A stretch of DNA of 64,000 bases from Enterobacteria phage GEC-3S. The stretch lies in the sequence record HE978309. One strand, written 5' to 3'. Below are positions 6,772 through 32,408 of the stretch, in pieces (positions within the stretch are counted from its first letter, which is position 1; each line of letters starts with the position of its first letter). The translations under genes were made by a program, and so were the position numbers. The notes beneath the pieces are model-generated. The model was not told where the DNA came from and made no database searches. It saw only the letters and a list, made by a program, of their open reading frames with translations.

Positions 6772-7245
6772 CTATCTTAATCTTTGTATGAATTGTTTCT
6801 TATACTTCTTCGTGATTTCTTCTCGTGTATCAGCGTCGCAGTAATCGAAACCTTCTGCGTCCATAATAGCAACCATCTCCGCTCGTGTCAAGCGTGAAAA
6901 TCGTTTTACTTTATCAACAGCATATTGAGGATGTAAATGATTGTTGGTGTAGTCTCCTTTGATGTAATTAACATAGTTTGTAGCCCAAACAACGAAATCA
7001 GCACCTAAAGCACCAACACCAAACCGTTTAAAGTCTCCGGTCAACGATCCTTCTAGGCGGTTGCAACACGAATGAAGCAATCCCCTTACGCGGCCTTGCC
7101 CTTTCCCATCTAGATCGTGGTCGTGGTCAAGATGGTTTTTGCTCATATCCTCAAAAAGTGGCAATTGACAAAGGGGGCAAATGCCCCCCTGTTTTTCGAA
7201 TAGTTCTTGTTTGTACTCTTTAGCACTCTTAGCAGTCAGTAACAT
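6772..7245 (-). CDS. 49: endonuclease VII (Holliday junction resolvase, T4 gp49)
   Basis: N-terminus MLLTAKSAKEYKQ and Cys/His motifs CPLCQ, NHLDHDHD match my recollection of T4 endonuclease VII; 157 aa from the ATG behind GGAGGGTG. Confidence 0.9.
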   Translation of the reverse strand: MLLTAKSAKEYKQELFEKQGGICPLCQLPLFEDMSKNHLDHDHDLDGKGQGRVRGLLHSCCNRLEGSLTGDFKRFGVGALGADFVVWATNYVNYIKGDYTNNHLHPQYAVDKVKRFSRLTRAEMVAIMDAEGFDYCDADTREEITKKYKKQFIQRLR

Positions 7246-7269
7246 AAATTCACCCTCCAAAGAAGGTAT

Positions 7270-7551
7270 TTAACCATTAATCTTGTTTTTGACTACAAAG
7301 GATCGGAACTCATCAAAACCACCGATATAATCACCATCATAGAAAATCTGCGGCATGGTGGCAATAACTTCTACCCCTGCGCGATCCTGAATATCGGCAA
7401 TGATAGAATCAATCTTTACCGGGCGACCGTTTTCGTCCACACCATCATTAACCGGAATGTAGATGTAAGGGATCTTACGCGCTTCACAAAGGCGCTTTGC
7501 ATTCTGGCAATACTTACAGTTGTAACCTTCAAAACCAAAAATTTCTACCAT
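7270..7551 (-). CDS. nrdC: glutaredoxin/thioredoxin-like protein (T4 NrdC-like)
   Basis: CKYC redox motif, TMPQIF and GGFDEF motifs; start moved to ATG behind GAGGT. Confidence 0.8.
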   Translation of the reverse strand: MVEIFGFEGYNCKYCQNAKRLCEARKIPYIYIPVNDGVDENGRPVKIDSIIADIQDRAGVEVIATMPQIFYDGDYIGGFDEFRSFVVKNKING

Positions 7552-7552
7552 G

Positions 7553-8308
7553 TTATACCTCATTCAGTTCTATATCAAGTTCATTTTCAATAATATAGGC
7601 ATTAACTGCCCGTGCCGCATCATCTTCTGTGTCAAATCTTCCTATATACACACCGCGAACTTTAGCACCGTAATTACCTTGTTTTGGTACTTTGTAAACG
7701 TATCTATGACGGGAACTTGCTGCTTTTTGGAGCTTCTTGCCATATTCAGACTTTGCATATTCTATATCATCAATCTCGTTTATACAAGACCTATCACCAA
7801 AATGTTTCAACGCTGCAAGATTATATGCATACGCCGCACCGATCTCGGAGGGAAAATATCCTAAATGTATAGACTTCCCATCCAACATTATTGCACCAGT
7901 CCAATAACCTTTATTCTTATTAAACGACACACCTTTATACTTCGAATATGTTTTGCATTTGGTCTTGCTCATATTCATATTATTTTGTTTGCTTGTCGTC
8001 TCTCTAAGGTTTTCAATGCGGCTATTATAACGATCTCGGTCTTTATGATCTATATACTTAGGACAATGACCATGAAACATATGATAGATAACACGGTGCA
8101 TACGTTCGTATCGCTCGCCAGTCCATACAATACGATACCCATCGGGGGTATCACTTCCAGCTAATCCGTTTATAACACCTTTTCGGTGCGGGTGAATCTT
8201 CCACCTAAGAAAACCATCATCATAATAAAACCGTGAATGATATAAATCATATAAACGTTTATCTTCTGGAGTCTTGTGTATAACCTCATATTTTAACATT
8301 GGTGACAT
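7553..8308 (-). CDS. HNH homing endonuclease with two AP2-type DNA-binding domains (Mob-like)
   Basis: HNH core IDHKDRDRYNSRIENLRETT; AP2-like YKGVSF...GAAYAYN and GAKVRG...EDDAARAVN; paralog of the ORF at 35956-36696. Confidence 0.8.
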   Translation of the reverse strand: MSPMLKYEVIHKTPEDKRLYDLYHSRFYYDDGFLRWKIHPHRKGVINGLAGSDTPDGYRIVWTGERYERMHRVIYHMFHGHCPKYIDHKDRDRYNSRIENLRETTSKQNNMNMSKTKCKTYSKYKGVSFNKNKGYWTGAIMLDGKSIHLGYFPSEIGAAYAYNLAALKHFGDRSCINEIDDIEYAKSEYGKKLQKAASSRHRYVYKVPKQGNYGAKVRGVYIGRFDTEDDAARAVNAYIIENELDIELNEV

Positions 8309-26981: not shown

Positions 26982-27027
26982 AATTTGATTCTCCGTTTAA
27001 GAAAGTGTGTTTCGTTTCGATGGGTGT

Positions 27028-27056
27028 ATTATGCTATAGGCCGGATCTGGTGTCAA
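27028..27056 (-). promoter_or_regulatory. sigma70-type early promoter (TTGACA, 17 bp, CATAAT) with A/T-rich upstream element
   Basis: read directly. Confidence 0.55.
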
Positions 27057-27080
27057 CAACTTTTTTAAAAAATTTTAGGC

Positions 27081-27110
27081 AATAAAAAAGCCACTCCGAA
27101 GAGTGGCTTA
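27081..27110 (-). terminator. rho-independent terminator
   Basis: AGCCACTC-ttcg-GAGTGGCT hairpin followed by TTTTTTATT on the minus strand. Confidence 0.65.
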
Positions 27111-27258
27111 TAGGGAAGGTAGCGAATCTTCCTTGTCTCCAACCTGCTAGCGGCCTAGCAAGTGAATGCTTTAGCGTACCGGATCGCCCACATACGCTGT
27201 AATAAATGCGGCTAGGTGACGTCCAAATCATTCTAACCGCGCTGTCTTTAGTTCACTA
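27111..27258. other. about 150-bp non-coding interval between a gene end and its terminator; candidate small RNA or structured 3' UTR
   Basis: the only track ORF here (27034-27231) spans the terminator and looks spurious; local stems GGAAG...CTTCC and GCGGCTAG...CTAACCGC. Confidence 0.3.
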
Positions 27259-27477
27259 TTATTTATATCGCTTTCTCTCGCGACGTTTTTGATCTTCTTC
27301 CTTGATAGAGTTAAATGCATCAAAAAGACACATGACACTGATAATGAACATAACCGTATTTTCTACGATATCCCACGGCTTCGCATCAGTACAGATCCCC
27401 CAAACGGTAAGAAATGCAAATAAGGCAGAAGAGATCACAAGCATGATACTTGCTAAGATATAAAAAGTCATTTTCAT
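27259..27477 (-). CDS. small membrane protein
   Basis: track ORF; hydrophobic. Confidence 0.5.
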   Translation of the reverse strand: MKMTFYILASIMLVISSALFAFLTVWGICTDAKPWDIVENTVMFIISVMCLFDAFNSIKEEDQKRRERKRYK

Positions 27478-27668
27478 GGTTTTACCTCAATTCTTCGATA
27501 TTCATCACACATCCACGCAGTAAGCAAGAATCCCAACACATAAGCAACAAAATACGTTAATGCTTCTTCTGGTTCGGTGCTATGCGCCATCATCAGACCA
27601 GCGAGAAAGGTCTTAACAATTACATTTAAAATAATTAGCCACGCAAATAATTTCATCGTTTGCCCCAT
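27474..27668 (-). CDS. small membrane protein
   Basis: track ORF; hydrophobic. Confidence 0.5.
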   Translation of the reverse strand: MGQTMKLFAWLIILNVIVKTFLAGLMMAHSTEPEEALTYFVAYVLGFLLTAWMCDEYRRIEVKP

Positions 27669-27892
27669 TTCGGACGAGTCTTTTCAAACTTATACATTAC
27701 GCAACAATCTCGAATCATCCACGTAACAAGAGCACCAGTCAACACAGACAACACACAGAAGAAGTAAAACGGTCCGGTTGCATTATCAACATGAGCAAGC
27801 CATGTAAAGAAAACACATGCAAGGAATGTAAAGAACATCATAAAACACAAGAAAGCAAAATATTTTATGCTACTCATAGCGCCACCATACAA
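27653..27892 (-). CDS. small membrane protein
   Basis: track ORF; hydrophobic. Confidence 0.5.
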   Translation of the reverse strand: MYGGAMSSIKYFAFLCFMMFFTFLACVFFTWLAHVDNATGPFYFFCVLSVLTGALVTWMIRDCCVMYKFEKTRPKWGKR

Positions 27893-27980
27893 CAGATCAT
27901 AAGAAAACCCAACGCAATAAGAATTGCATCAAATTTAGTGAACTCCGGTCCACCTATCAACATCATTCGTTCCTGTTCAG

Positions 27981-28223
27981 TCATAGATCACAGAGCCATC
28001 TTAAAGCACCACATAAAGCGAGCAGAATACTAGGTATAAACGAGATCAAAACAAGTTGGCAAAAATCATCTAAGGTAACACCGGAATAGCTACCTACTGT
28101 AACAACACCGATCATCAGACACAGAAAGAAAACAAATGCAACCAGAAACAAAGTATTGCTAAACAGTTTAGTGATCATTAGACACCCCACGACGATCAAT
28201 TTCAAAAACTTTTTTATCATCAA
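27981..28223 (-). CDS. small membrane protein
   Basis: track ORF; hydrophobic. Confidence 0.5.
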   Translation of the reverse strand: MMIKKFLKLIVVGCLMITKLFSNTLFLVAFVFFLCLMIGVVTVGSYSGVTLDDFCQLVLISFIPSILLALCGALRWLCDL

Positions 28224-28371
28224 CGAAGCATGTCACAACTGCCTCGTTGACTTCCGCAAATTGTTGTGTTACCCACTTAAGGTCAGAGCGAAACAATGTT
28301 CTATTAATAACAAATGCTTTACCGATCTTATCCTTACCCATAAATTTTGCTTTAACCATATCCAATTCCAT
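28168..28371 (-). CDS. hypothetical protein
   Basis: track ORF. Confidence 0.45.
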   Translation of the reverse strand: MELDMVKAKFMGKDKIGKAFVINRTLFRSDLKWVTQQFAEVNEAVVTCFVDDKKVFEIDRRGVSNDH

Positions 28372-28380
28372 ATTATCACC

Positions 28381-28539
28381 TTATTTGCTAATCGCTAAAC
28401 CCAATCCGAAGAGAGCACCCGATGCTACAGTATACCCGAAAGTTTCAAATGCAGTAAAGATATCTAAGCCACCAGCTAACAGAGTTGCAGTAAACAGAGT
28501 ACCAGCTACGAACATAAAAGTTTTACCGATAAATTTCAT
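28381..28539 (-). CDS. small membrane protein (about 52 aa)
   Basis: GGAGAATCAAAATG leader directly downstream of promoter 28571-28599; hydrophobic; below the ORF-track cutoff. Confidence 0.45.
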   Translation of the reverse strand: MKFIGKTFMFVAGTLFTATLLAGGLDIFTAFETFGYTVASGALFGLGLAISK

Positions 28540-28570
28540 TTTGATTCTCCTTTCGTTTGTTTGTGGGGGT

Positions 28571-28599
28571 ATCTTACTACCCCCGTTTCATGTTGTCAA
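28571..28599 (-). promoter_or_regulatory. sigma70-type early promoter (TTGACA, 17 bp, TAAGAT) with GGGGGTAG/ACCCCC inverted repeat around the -10
   Basis: read directly; near-copy of the promoter at 5830-5858. Confidence 0.55.
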
Positions 28600-28605
28600 C
28601 TATTT

Positions 28606-28980
28606 TTAAGAATATTTTACTTCGTCTACAATGTCTTTCATGACATTGATTTCCATTCCGGTCAGAACACGTTGGAACATGTGCTGCACATACGCTTTCA
28701 GGTATTCATTTGATGGCTTGCTATCGAAAGTCTTTTTAGTGTAGTAGTCATCACCGAAAGCTACTGTAATTATATTTTCGTCGTCGTTCCAAGCGATATA
28801 AGCAAATTTGCCGTTATCCCAGAAGCGAGCACTAATTGCTACTTTTGTTGAATCGAATCCTACTTCGCTGTGAGATTCAAGAACTACTTGCGTGCCAGTT
28901 TCTTTATGAATGTAGTAGCGGGATACTAAGTCAAAGTTACGGGTGTAGTGACATTCGAATTTATCTTTAAACATCATCAT
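28606..28980 (-). CDS. hypothetical protein
   Basis: track ORF runs upstream through the promoter with a GTG start; start moved to the ATG behind AGGAGAATCAAA. Confidence 0.55.
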   Translation of the reverse strand: MMMFKDKFECHYTRNFDLVSRYYIHKETGTQVVLESHSEVGFDSTKVAISARFWDNGKFAYIAWNDDENIITVAFGDDYYTKKTFDSKPSNEYLKAYVQHMFQRVLTGMEINVMKDIVDEVKYS

Positions 28981-29017
28981 TTTGATTCTCCTAAGTGTGT
29001 TTCGTTTCGATATGTGC

Positions 29018-29046
29018 ATTATTCTATAGTCGTTTATGGTTGTCAA
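29018..29046 (-). promoter_or_regulatory. sigma70-type early promoter (TTGACA, 17 bp, AATAAT)
   Basis: read directly; weaker -10. Confidence 0.45.
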
Positions 29047-29051
29047 CACCT

Positions 29052-29082
29052 AAAAACAAAAAACCCCGAAAAATTTTCGGGG
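29052..29082 (-). terminator. rho-independent terminator after the 57B-like gene
   Basis: perfect CCCCGAAAA-a-TTTTCGGGG hairpin followed by a T-tract on the minus strand. Confidence 0.7.
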
Positions 29083-29089
29083 TATAAAA

Positions 29090-29554
29090 TTACAGTTTGG
29101 TCGTCCACTCCAGGTCTAGATCTTCGACATACTCATGAGATCGGACAATCTCTAAATCGAACTCTAGGTCAGTGCCAAATTTACGCGCACCAACATCATA
29201 AGAAAGCGTGATATGCGGTACATATTCAGGATAATCCCACGTCGCACCTAAAGCAGTTCCGATATCGTGTCTGAATTGCATGTAGTCGCTTTCAAATGCC
29301 AACACAAGCGCATTAGTACCGGATTGAGTTTCAAACACTTTCAGATGACACAGAGAGCCTAAAAACTTTTCACCCTCTTCCGGGATAAACGGAACATAGA
29401 CACGAGAATATAAGATAGTGCTATGCAGTTTATCACGAGGAACAGCATTAGGCAGATCGTAGAACTCCTGCAATTTTTCAATGCGGTCTAGTGTATCCTC
29501 AGTGAATTTAACCGCAGCATATGTACCTTTAACGGATTCTCGAAACGGGGTCAT
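29090..29554 (-). CDS. 57B: 2H-phosphoesterase-fold protein at the T4 57B position (Acb1-like anti-CBASS candidate)
   Basis: two H-x-T motifs (HSTI, HITL) about 75 aa apart; immediately upstream of 57A and gene 1; start moved to the ATG behind ACGGAGG. Confidence 0.6.
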   Translation of the reverse strand: MTPFRESVKGTYAAVKFTEDTLDRIEKLQEFYDLPNAVPRDKLHSTILYSRVYVPFIPEEGEKFLGSLCHLKVFETQSGTNALVLAFESDYMQFRHDIGTALGATWDYPEYVPHITLSYDVGARKFGTDLEFDLEIVRSHEYVEDLDLEWTTKL

Positions 29555-29556
29555 AA

Positions 29557-29817
29557 TCAAGCCTCCGTGATCAGTTCTACTTCCTCTTTAGCGTCTTCCG
29601 CTGCTTCGTCTTTAGGGAGAAGTGCTTTCACTTCTTCGACAATAGCATCAAGGGAAACAGTGCCGTTTTCGTCTGGCTGAATACCCAGAATGCGTACCAG
29701 TTCCATCAATACACGCTCACGATCTTTCAGTTGGCCTTCTAAGAATGCGGCCTTTTCTTGAGTGTCAAACAGACGTACTTTCAGGACATTAATCATTTGT
29801 TCATGCTGATTGGACAT
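29557..29817 (-). CDS. 57A: gp57A-like tail-fibre assembly chaperone (coiled coil)
   Basis: about 86 aa coiled-coil protein between 57B and gene 1; start moved to the ATG behind AGGAG. Confidence 0.6.
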   Translation of the reverse strand: MSNQHEQMINVLKVRLFDTQEKAAFLEGQLKDRERVLMELVRILGIQPDENGTVSLDAIVEEVKALLPKDEAAEDAKEEVELITEA

Positions 29818-29849
29818 ATTCACATCTCCTACTTGTTGATAACTTTTTA

Positions 29850-30506
29850 TTAAATGTTCGCGAGAATCGCGCTTTCAAATTCTTCTAATGTGCCATTATT
29901 TATAATGATGGTTTCACCGTCAATAGGCAAAATTCCTTTTTCGGTGGAGTGAGTCGATACAATACCAGTATCACGCTGAATATGCAACACCTTAGCACCC
30001 ATAGCACGCATGAGAGCAATTTCAATAGGCTGACGCACATCAACCACTACAAAATACCCTTCTTCATTTTTGCGCTTCATAAACTCATCCACAAATAGAT
30101 TACACCAATAAAGCGGATTGATCAAGTTAACCATTATATCAGTACCGAGAGTGGTTAACATGAGACGAATAGACCAGACGTTATTATGTTTTTCGCCGAT
30201 CTCATTAACGACCTTGTAAATCTCAGCCAGACGATCACAAGTAAAGGAGCTACCGCCATACTTCGAATCTAGCATAAGCAGACACTGAATAAACCACTTA
30301 TGCGCGGTGTAGGTATCAATACCTAGATCGGCTTCTCTGTCACGCCCTAACCCGTCAAAGTCAAGATAAGTCAGACCTAAGTCTGGTTGACATTCGCATA
30401 AGATTTCTTTGATCGGCGCTGCCAGTTGATAACTGTGTCCATCAATGATTAACGCGGCAGTGTCTTTTCCTACTCGCTTTTTACCACAAAGTGCAATCAA
30501 TTTCAT
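29850..30506 (-). CDS. 1: deoxynucleoside monophosphate kinase (gp1)
   Basis: P-loop CGKKRVGKDT; N-terminus MKLIALCG and TLGTD, RQ..E motifs as in T4 gp1; AGAGG before ATG. Confidence 0.85.
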   Translation of the reverse strand: MKLIALCGKKRVGKDTAALIIDGHSYQLAAPIKEILCECQPDLGLTYLDFDGLGRDREADLGIDTYTAHKWFIQCLLMLDSKYGGSSFTCDRLAEIYKVVNEIGEKHNNVWSIRLMLTTLGTDIMVNLINPLYWCNLFVDEFMKRKNEEGYFVVVDVRQPIEIALMRAMGAKVLHIQRDTGIVSTHSTEKGILPIDGETIIINNGTLEEFESAILANI

Positions 30507-30521
30507 TATATAAGCCTCTTA

Positions 30522-31112
30522 TTACTTTCTAAAAGCAGGGTGCATAGCTTTAATACCTTCCACCCGCTGACGATCCGCCGCCTGAATTGCTGGGCGAGGA
30601 ACGATCAGTTGGCCATCACGTTCAATGCTCATTGTTTTAAATGGAAGAATTGCAGTACACACCAGAGATTCATGCATATCATCGGTGTATGTTAACTCAA
30701 GTTCCCCCAATTGTGAACACCAACAACCATAAAAGTTAAAGGTGCAAACAATGTTACGGCGTTCATTGTCCATCATGTGAACTTGAACGGCTTCCGGCAT
30801 TGAATCCTTCCACGCTGTGGAGTTACCGTTATTGTAGTCTACTATAGAAAGCATCCATGTGTAAAGGTTTAGATAACTTTCCAAATGCTCATCGACAATA
30901 AACCGGACTACCAACGGGTCAAACTCCACATGACTAGAAGGATAATCAGCAACCGCCAAACCATATTGGCCAGCAACTTGCTTAGTCGGTGGAATGGTTA
31001 TAGCAGGAAGTGTAACACCTTGAGCATTTAAAGTAAAGCCTTTTGTTAGTTGTCCATCTGGAATATTGATCTGCCAGTTGCTAGGGTTAGCATAGTTAAA
31101 GAGATTAGACAT
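30522..31112 (-). CDS. 3: tail completion / sheath stabiliser protein gp3
   Basis: position between genes 1 and 2; about 196 aa; late-promoter-like AATAAATA about 22 bp upstream. Confidence 0.65.
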   Translation of the reverse strand: MSNLFNYANPSNWQINIPDGQLTKGFTLNAQGVTLPAITIPPTKQVAGQYGLAVADYPSSHVEFDPLVVRFIVDEHLESYLNLYTWMLSIVDYNNGNSTAWKDSMPEAVQVHMMDNERRNIVCTFNFYGCWCSQLGELELTYTDDMHESLVCTAILPFKTMSIERDGQLIVPRPAIQAADRQRVEGIKAMHPAFRK

Positions 31113-31301
31113 TACTGATTCCTCAAATGAAAATATTTATTAACAATTGTCGCTTTGCGACGTGCCGTAGGCACTGACTACTTTTTAACCGAAACAAATT
31201 TTTATTATTCTAAAGATCTTTCTTCGTTTTGGTTATGTTTTAACCAATAACTATATTTTTATACAGTAATAAATAAAACGGGTACTATACGAGGACTTCT
31301 T

Positions 31302-31556
31302 ATGACAGAAGACATTTTGTTAAAACTCTATGATCGTTTGGATAACGAATTAGCAACATTGCGGGGTGAAGTTCTCTATTTGTCTAAATGCAATACAGAT
31401 CTGCTTAAGCAGATTGCAGAAAGGGATGATCAAATAAAATCCCTTTCAGGTGCATTACGTGATCGCGACAAGGCATTAGAGATTTTACAGCGTGTTACCA
31501 ATAAGGAAGAATTAAAAGACTTCTTACATGGTTATGCTCATGCCATCGATCTATAA
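31302..31556 (+). CDS. small coiled-coil protein on the opposite strand between genes 3 and 2
   Basis: track ORF; GAGGA 7 nt before ATG; AATAAATA late-promoter-like box at 31268-31275. Confidence 0.4.
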   Translation: MTEDILLKLYDRLDNELATLRGEVLYLSKCNTDLLKQIAERDDQIKSLSGALRDRDKALEILQRVTNKEELKDFLHGYAHAIDL

Positions 31557-31582
31557 TAAAAAAGCCCGTCATTGACGGGCTT
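31557..31582 (-). terminator. hairpin terminator after gene 2 (may also stop the plus-strand small ORF)
   Basis: AGCCCGTC-att-GACGGGCT hairpin flanked by A6 and a T-rich stretch. Confidence 0.55.
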
Positions 31583-31586
31583 AATC

Positions 31587-32408
31587 TTATGCATCCTTCC
31601 AAACTTTCCTTGCGTCGTATTTCTTGCCTTTTGACATAAACTGATATGTAGGCATATAGATAATATTGCTCCAGTCTTTCGGGCTAATCTCAACAAGTTT
31701 TGTTTTAATGTGTCCCGGTAGATATGCTTTGATCATGTGGTCACTACCACGCATACCTTTTACATCGCTCCATTTGATTTTTAAGCGTGTTTTATTGCTC
31801 AAGGTAGGAGTAGATGCATATTGCTTTAAAAGTGCCTCTAAAAACTGCTGACGGGCTTTAGGAGTTACATAGTGTAAGTTAAGACCCAACATTACAGTAT
31901 TACCCGCCTTTGTCTTAGAATCACCCAGACAAATGATCAGCGGGAAAACATCCCAATATGGCAAAGTGTCTTTATACTTCGCATCATACATAAAGGTATA
32001 GATTCGCCCTACTTGCGGTTTTACAATCTGGTGTCCCTTTATTCCCGCTTTTATTGTTTTAGTAAACCACTCCTGTGATTTTTCTTTAGGACGACTCTTT
32101 GATACAGCACGCATAGACGCACGAAAATCATTAATCATCATCATTGCGCGTTGCTGCTTATTGAGACCCTTTGCGCCTTTCCCTTTTAGTTTTTCAACTT
32201 CTATTGCTGTTTTAATTTCGCTGGCATAACGAGACATACTTTTAGTGAAAGTCGCATAGGCTATTCCCTTAGAATCTGCAAATGCTTTAGCTGTCATTCC
32301 TTTGGCTTTTGCTTTCGCAAATTCTACACCCAATTCGACCCACTGTTTAGACTTTCGTTTTTGGGGAGACGGCTTTTCGTCTTCGGTGATTATTTCAAAT
32401 ACGCTCAT
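31587..32408 (-). CDS. 2: DNA end protector protein gp2
   Basis: position between genes 3 and 4; 273 aa; AGAGGATAATATTATG leader. Confidence 0.75.
   Translation of the reverse strand: MSVFEIITEDEKPSPQKRKSKQWVELGVEFAKAKAKGMTAKAFADSKGIAYATFTKSMSRYASEIKTAIEVEKLKGKGAKGLNKQQRAMMMINDFRASMRAVSKSRPKEKSQEWFTKTIKAGIKGHQIVKPQVGRIYTFMYDAKYKDTLPYWDVFPLIICLGDSKTKAGNTVMLGLNLHYVTPKARQQFLEALLKQYASTPTLSNKTRLKIKWSDVKGMRGSDHMIKAYLPGHIKTKLVEISPKDWSNIIYMPTYQFMSKGKKYDARKVWKDA

Follow-up and report, generated by a model that had tools for sequence, protein, structure and literature searches.

A probable Krischvirus ortholog of the T4 anti-CBASS gene 57B (acb1) in an RB49-type coliphage genome

The last gene of a minus-strand block that also carries genes 3, 1 and 57A is very probably the Krischvirus (RB49-group) ortholog of T4 57B/acb1, and its product is predicted, by homology to characterized enzymes, to act as a compact 2H phosphoesterase against CBASS. 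The gene was examined within a window of 64,000 nucleotides (the whole stretch of DNA that was analysed, from Enterobacteria phage GEC-3S, record HE978309), which belongs to the genus Krischvirus (RB49/Phi1/JSE-like coliphage) and is 98-99% identical at the DNA level to RB49, Phi1, JSE and approximately 55 other members of that genus. An initial annotation of this DNA had placed an Acb1-like 2H phosphoesterase at the 57B position, and that assignment is supported by the Acb1 profile, by sequence identity, by the predicted fold and by synteny. Nothing in the identification is new, in that the Acb1 family, its mechanism, its structure and even the naming of this very sequence are publicly documented: UniRef lists the identical sequence as 'Anti-CBASS protein Acb1' (n=16, Krischvirus, Q7Y455_BPRB4; Q7Y455, RB49), and it is present under accessions for RB49, Phi1 and JSE.

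Family membership, functional residues and predicted fold

The Pfam profile for Acb1 (PF23474) matched the acb1 product across profile positions 1-143 of 144, with a score of 174.4 bits where the cutoff is 27, and the same family is carried by all 64 of its 64 database homologs. A phmmer search of the PDB returned Acb1 (7T26/7T27) as the sole match (E = 1.8e-43, residues 10-153, approximately 54% identity), and a BLASTP comparison with T4 57B/Acb1 (NP_049750) gave 47% identity with E = 3e-47. The protein search that had been proposed as a check thus led to Acb1 by way of Pfam, of the sequence of the FBB1 structure and of T4 57B, and the resemblance, which the initial annotation had allowed might end at the generic 2H fold, decisively extends beyond it. 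NCBIfam returned no family for the acb1 product or for its three downstream neighbours.

The assignment had originally been argued from two HxT motifs, HSTI and HITL, in the spacing typical of 2H phosphoesterases. Both are present in the sequence and its translation (residues 44-47 and 114-117), with their histidines separated by 70 residues as compared to 69 in T4 Acb1. By themselves, such motifs are weak evidence of Acb1 identity: of the frames in the window that run for 100 amino acids or more from stop to stop, which number 116, six contain two or more HxT motifs, and two contain two Hx[TS] motifs separated by 55-95 residues. Because paired HxT motifs are not rare, the argument from motifs alone was set aside, and the case for Acb1 rests upon the profile, sequence and structure matches.

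Hobbs et al. 2022 named nine catalytic or ligand-contacting residues in Acb1 (Y12, W74, F107, W147, E141, H44, T46, H113 and T115), of which those in the two HxT motifs form the catalytic tetrad, while Y12, W74, F107 and W147 stack on the bases of the ligand (PMC9117128). The same study reported that E141 of the T4 enzyme contacts the adenine N6, which accounts for the need for an adenosine, and that catalysis requires a C-terminal lid (residues 145-152 of the T4 and FBB1 proteins), which shuts over the ligand (PMC9117128). Alignments to T4 and FBB1 identified the equivalent positions here as Y12, F74, Y108, W150, E144, H44, T46, H114 and T116, such that all nine are either kept or conservatively replaced. 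The tetrad (H44, T46, H114 and T116) is invariant in 62 of 62 aligned homologs, and position 74 is F or W in every one of them; Y12 is found in 61 of the 62, E144 in 56 and W150 in 47. F74 and Y108 are together the states of the crystallised FBB1 Acb1, and E144, which corresponds to the T4 residue that contacts adenine N6, is located just ahead of the lid segment. The residue beside the stacking position Y108, W106, represents a minority state, with Y in most of the Acb1 family and H in T4.

An AlphaFold2 model of the protein, built on 62 homologs, displayed a mean pLDDT of 91.6 and a pTM of 0.84. Foldseek aligned this predicted model to 7T26 with a TM score of 0.97 and an rmsd of 0.9 A over 138 columns (52% identity), and to 7T27 with a TM score of 0.93. 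The next-best matches were to a divergent phage PDE (9Q2Y/9Q2G; TM ~0.7, 16-18% identity), and the distant matches included LigT and CPDase structures, with E. coli LigT aligned at a TM score of ~0.5, an rmsd of 6-7 A and 11% identity. The model therefore predicts a compact 2H fold that can be superposed on the solved Acb1 structure. The pLDDT values fall below 50 at residues 151-154, which fits the behavior expected of a flexible lid that would become ordered only upon binding of a ligand.

Table 1. Coordinates of acb1, its sequence motifs and its flanking features in the window
Feature	Position	Strand	Basis
acb1 (gene 57B) CDS, 154 codons (154 aa) from ATG (29554-29552) to TAA stop (29092-29090)	29090..29554	minus	ORF, Pfam, PDB, T4 identity, UniRef name
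Shine-Dalgarno GGAGG, 7 nt before acb1 ATG, within last 57A codons	29562..29566	minus	sequence
First catalytic motif, H44-S45-T46-I47 (CAT AGC ACT ATC; = T4 H44/T46)	29414..29425	minus	read from sequence and translation
Second catalytic motif, H114-I115-T116-L117 (CAT ATC ACG CTT; = T4 H113/T115)	29204..29215	minus	read from sequence and translation
C-terminal lid segment, residues 148-154 (L148-E-W150-T-T-K-L154; W150 = T4 W147)	29093..29113	minus	alignment to T4, FBB1
Gene 57A, tail-fibre chaperone, directly 5' of acb1	29557..29817	minus	Pfam GP57 27.4 bits, phrog_1002 3e-26, Phi1 annotation
Gene 1, dNMP kinase	29850..30506	minus	Pfam DNMK 230 bits; Phi1 and T4 annotation
Intrinsic-terminator-like hairpin ACCCCGAAAATTTTTCGGGGT then TTTTTGTTTT, directly after acb1 stop	29053..29083	minus	sequence
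Candidate 57A-acb1 promoter, within 3' end of gene 1	29895..29923	minus	consensus matches

Gene structure, neighbourhood and selection

The ATG start at position 29554 is preferred on the basis of the GGAGG sequence located 7 nucleotides upstream and of its use in every annotated relative; a longer reading from a TTG at 29560 was rejected on the same grounds. The stop codon of 57A (29559-29557) is separated from this ATG by a gap of 2 nucleotides, such that translational coupling between 57A and acb1 is likely.

The claim that the gene order of T4 is retained proved exact: genes 4-2-3-1-57A-57B are matched throughout, with the minus-strand order being 4, 2, (a short plus-strand ORF), 3, 1, 57A and 57B. 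The description of the ORF as lying immediately upstream of 57A and gene 1 was correct in its adjacency, and holds in plus-strand coordinates, but the coding-strand order, 3 > 1 > 57A > 57B, puts 57B downstream of both, as the final gene before a terminator. The corresponding stem-loop and T-run span 29083-29063, and phage G2494 has an annotated terminator at the matching site. At the other end of this gene pair, a T4-type late promoter consensus, TATAAATA (29904-29897), lies approximately 80 nucleotides before 57A and overlaps a sigma-70-like element (TTGACG-17-AATAAT, 10/12); TATAAATA is also found within gene 1 of T4, but approximately 360 nucleotides before 57A. These candidate promoters suggest that 57A and acb1 may be made both early and late in infection. 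An Rfam scan of 27000-32000 detected no RNA element.

Additional features of the surrounding DNA were noted. The next gene downstream of acb1 (28606-28980, phrog_15253) encodes a 124-aa protein of unknown function at the place where T4 has ipI, and is followed by a hydrophobic ORF of 52 aa (28381-28539) and then by a homolog of Dmd (28168-28371, minus strand; Pfam PF17587, 57 bits), located 0.7 kb downstream of acb1. Dmd serves as the antitoxin to RnlA and LsoA, so the neighbourhood of acb1 again contains a counter-defence gene. Below dmd, at 27474-28223 on the minus strand, is a series of four small ORFs for strongly hydrophobic products (64, 79, 36 and 80 aa), with overlapping or abutting stops and starts; none has a match to a Pfam family, and the Phi1 annotation calls them hypothetical. 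At 31557-31586, gene 2 begins 30 nucleotides past the end of ORF130, and the window does not contain the endonuclease gene ORF130.1 that lies between those two genes in Phi1 (1 kb, 7090-8121 of the Phi1 locus used for comparison); G2494 also lacks it, and members of the genus are thus polymorphic for this mobile homing endonuclease. A macro-domain protein encoded at 18402-18857 on the minus strand (PF01661, 29.9 bits; 44% identical to T4 Tk.4) is possibly an ADP-ribose-removing enzyme.

Comparisons within the genus indicate that acb1 is under purifying selection, and that it is maintained and not decaying. The gene differs from that of Phi1 at seven codons, with seven synonymous and no non-synonymous changes, and from that of G2494 at 12 nucleotide positions in 12 codons, with 11 synonymous changes and one non-synonymous change; its product is conserved at 99% identity or more across 54 phage records. 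In phage Cognac (MZ504877), the equivalent region (593-1056 of the Cognac locus used for comparison, corresponding to window 29090-29554) carries two annotated ORFs, of 64 and 82 aa: a T5 run at codon ~64 (window ~29361-29365) is shorter by 1 nucleotide, which puts the two HxT motifs in different frames. Either Acb1 has been lost naturally in this phage, or the homopolymer was misread in sequencing.

Proposed activity and alternative readings

A mechanism can be proposed by homology to the T4 and FBB1 Acb1 enzymes. The protein would capture a 3'-5'-linked cyclic di- or trinucleotide that is produced by a CBASS CD-NTase and contains at least one adenosine (3'3'-cGAMP, cUA, cAAA or cAAG), and would hold it in a U-shaped beta-sheet pocket, where Y12, F74, Y108 and W150 would stack on the ligand bases, E144 would read the adenine N6, and the C-terminal lid would shut over the ligand. 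The ligand would be strained in this state, such that the 2'-OH of the adenosine could attack the adjacent 3'-5' phosphodiester bond, with metal-independent acid-base catalysis provided by the tetrad of H44/T46 and H114/T116. The resulting 2',3'-cyclic phosphate intermediate would then be hydrolysed to a linear 3'-phosphate product (for example, GpAp). Upon destruction of the signal, the CBASS effector would stay off, and abortive infection and cell death would be averted before the end of the phage cycle. Metal-independent cleavage of 3'3'-cGAMP, cUA, cAAA and cAAG is most likely the activity of the acb1 product.

The initial annotation had also stated that T4 57B is reported to degrade the cyclic-oligonucleotide signals of CBASS, in agreement with the literature: Acb1 activity was discovered in T4 gp57B, and nine of nine additional homologs assayed by Hobbs et al. 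cleaved both 3'3'-cGAMP and cAAA (PMC9117128). Deletion of acb1 from T4, which is the only phage for which protection has been shown in vivo, results in a defect of more than 300-fold on a CBASS host, and Acb1 is dispensable for the growth of T4 where CBASS is absent (Hobbs et al. 2022). Searches of the available literature found no publication that pairs Acb1 with RB49 or Krischvirus with CBASS, and no published biochemical or genetic assay of a Krischvirus acb1 ortholog. The RB49-like phage vB_EcoM-G2494, whose 57B protein is identical to the acb1 product at 153 of 154 residues, is named in the list of phages whose lysates were screened by Hobbs et al.

It is improbable that the gene encodes an Acb1-family enzyme with a substrate range that is shifted relative to T4 Acb1: for example, one that spares 2'3'-c-di-AMP and so does not trigger Panoptes, or one that acts mainly against type III CRISPR systems that signal through cA3 and not against CBASS. 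The specificities of related viral 2H PDEs differ as a result of small changes in the protein core (Doherty et al. 2025, bioRxiv 10.1101/2025.08.21.671373), and the exact substrate list of the acb1 product is therefore not certain. T4 Acb1, unlike PDE-9, degrades 2'3'-c-di-AMP, which is the signal of Panoptes, and sets off that defence upon over-expression (10.1101/2025.08.21.671373; PMC12657218); the acb1 product shares just 47% identity with T4 Acb1, and carries W106 beside Y108; and Hobbs et al. indicated that cleavage of cAAA could also blunt type III CRISPR (PMC9117128). However, the residues published as stacking on the bases, reading the adenine or taking part in catalysis are all kept, the protein is nearer (54%) to the FBB1 Acb1 that was crystallised with 3'3'-cGAMP bound, and the nine homologs that were tested, which are diverse, all cleaved cGAMP and cAAA.

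An identity as a generic 2H phosphoesterase that acts on RNA ends, in the manner of a LigT-like 2'-5' RNA ligase or a 2',3'-cyclic phosphodiesterase, would agree with the 'RNA ligase' label applied to the Acb1 family in RefSeq and PHROGs, with weak matches to the corresponding profiles, and with the appearance of LigT and CPDase structures among the distant Foldseek matches. Those profile matches fall below their gathering cutoffs (2_5_RNA_ligase2, PF13563, 19.4 bits versus 27; LigT_PEase, PF02834, 14.1 bits versus 23.3), as compared to 174 bits for Acb1, and the structural match to LigT is poor beside that to Acb1; on these grounds the identity was rejected as highly improbable. The term 'RNA ligase' describes this family at the level of the fold, whereas those of its members that have been assayed (T4 57B and nine others) are nucleases of cyclic oligonucleotides. 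It is scarcely credible, in turn, that the gene is an inactive relic, retained just for its place in the 57A operon. The split gene of phage Cognac and the ability of T4 to grow without Acb1 when CBASS is absent (Hobbs et al. 2022) would be in keeping with such a relic, but the gene is full-length with its catalytic and binding residues all intact, the ratios of synonymous to non-synonymous changes (7/0 and 11/1) and the near-identity of the protein across 54 genomes speak against decay, and the Cognac frameshift, being located in a homopolymer, may be a sequencing error.

With the T4 anti-CBASS sponge Vs.4 (Acb2) as its single query, a tblastn search at E <= 1 returned no homolog, either from the window or from the other 100 kb of the closely related Phi1 genome, and Pfam searches of the ORFs beside regB, where vs.4 is located in T4, found no Acb2-type family. 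A single-query search of this type is insufficient to claim the absence of Acb2, and Acb1 may be the only known anti-CBASS gene of the lineage. An ORF located immediately past regB, at approximately the place of vs.3 and vs.4 in T4 (21196-21894, minus strand), encodes a 232-aa RlaP-family nucleotidyltransferase (PF10127, 53.6 bits; 'RNA repair pathway DNA polymerase beta family'). To defend against T4, Panoptes relies on Acb2 but not on Acb1 (PMC12657218); given that dependence and that no Acb2 was detected, an arsenal limited to Acb1 could evade Panoptes. The broader conjecture, that RB49-group phages counter cyclic-nucleotide immunity with Acb1 alone and could defeat CBASS without tripping Panoptes, possibly with a range tuned through W106, is speculative and unlikely, but such a lineage, if real, would constitute an interesting natural test.

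More immediately, the presence of an intact gene for an anti-CBASS nuclease in an RB49-type coliphage is useful for predicting host range among E. coli strains that carry CBASS, as in the design of phage therapy cocktails, and its recognition helps to correct the misleading labels 'RNA ligase' and 'hypothetical protein' found in most GenBank and RefSeq records of Krischvirus.

Comparison with known systems

Cellular enzymes of the LigT, 2'-5' RNA ligase and CPDase type (such as E. coli LigT, 5LDI) share with the acb1 product the superfamily fold and an HxT/S tetrad; they differ in being larger and acting on RNA-end substrates, and are related to it at only ~11% identity, with a TM score of ~0.5, an rmsd of 6-7 A and sub-threshold Pfam matches. 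A closer viral counterpart is PDE-9 of Burkholderia phage BCSR5 (9Q2G/9Q2Y; Doherty et al. 2025), which has the 2H fold and two catalytic histidines and cleaves cGAMP for immune evasion (Doherty et al. 2025), a function that the acb1 product would share by homology. The two proteins differ in sequence and structure (16-18% identity, TM ~0.7) and in the position of the lid, which is N-terminal in PDE-9 and of the C-terminal Acb1 type here.

The closest solved structure is that of Acb1 from Erwinia phage FBB1 (7T26, apo; 7T27, with the 3'3'-cGAMP product), with which F74 and Y108 are held in common. That phage infects a different host genus, and the two proteins are further distinguished by a two-residue insertion before the last strand (at ~129-130 here) and by nine additional N-terminal residues here that are absent from the crystal construct.

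T4 Acb1 (gp57B, NP_049750.1) provides the reference for both the gene and its setting. Relative to it, the protein described here carries the conservative replacements of W74 by F74 and of F107 by Y108, the replacement of H105 by W106, and one 1-residue and one 2-residue indel. At the level of gene organization, 57A and 57B overlap by 4 nucleotides in T4 and are 2 nucleotides apart here, and 57B is followed by ipI in T4 and by the 124-aa protein of unknown function here. In both phages, the gene is the last of a 3-1-57A-57B block on the same strand, and encodes proteins of similar length (154 aa here and 152 aa in T4) that are 47% identical over their full length and have in common the two HxT motifs, the stacking aromatics, the adenine-reading glutamate, and a C-terminal lid that contains a tryptophan.
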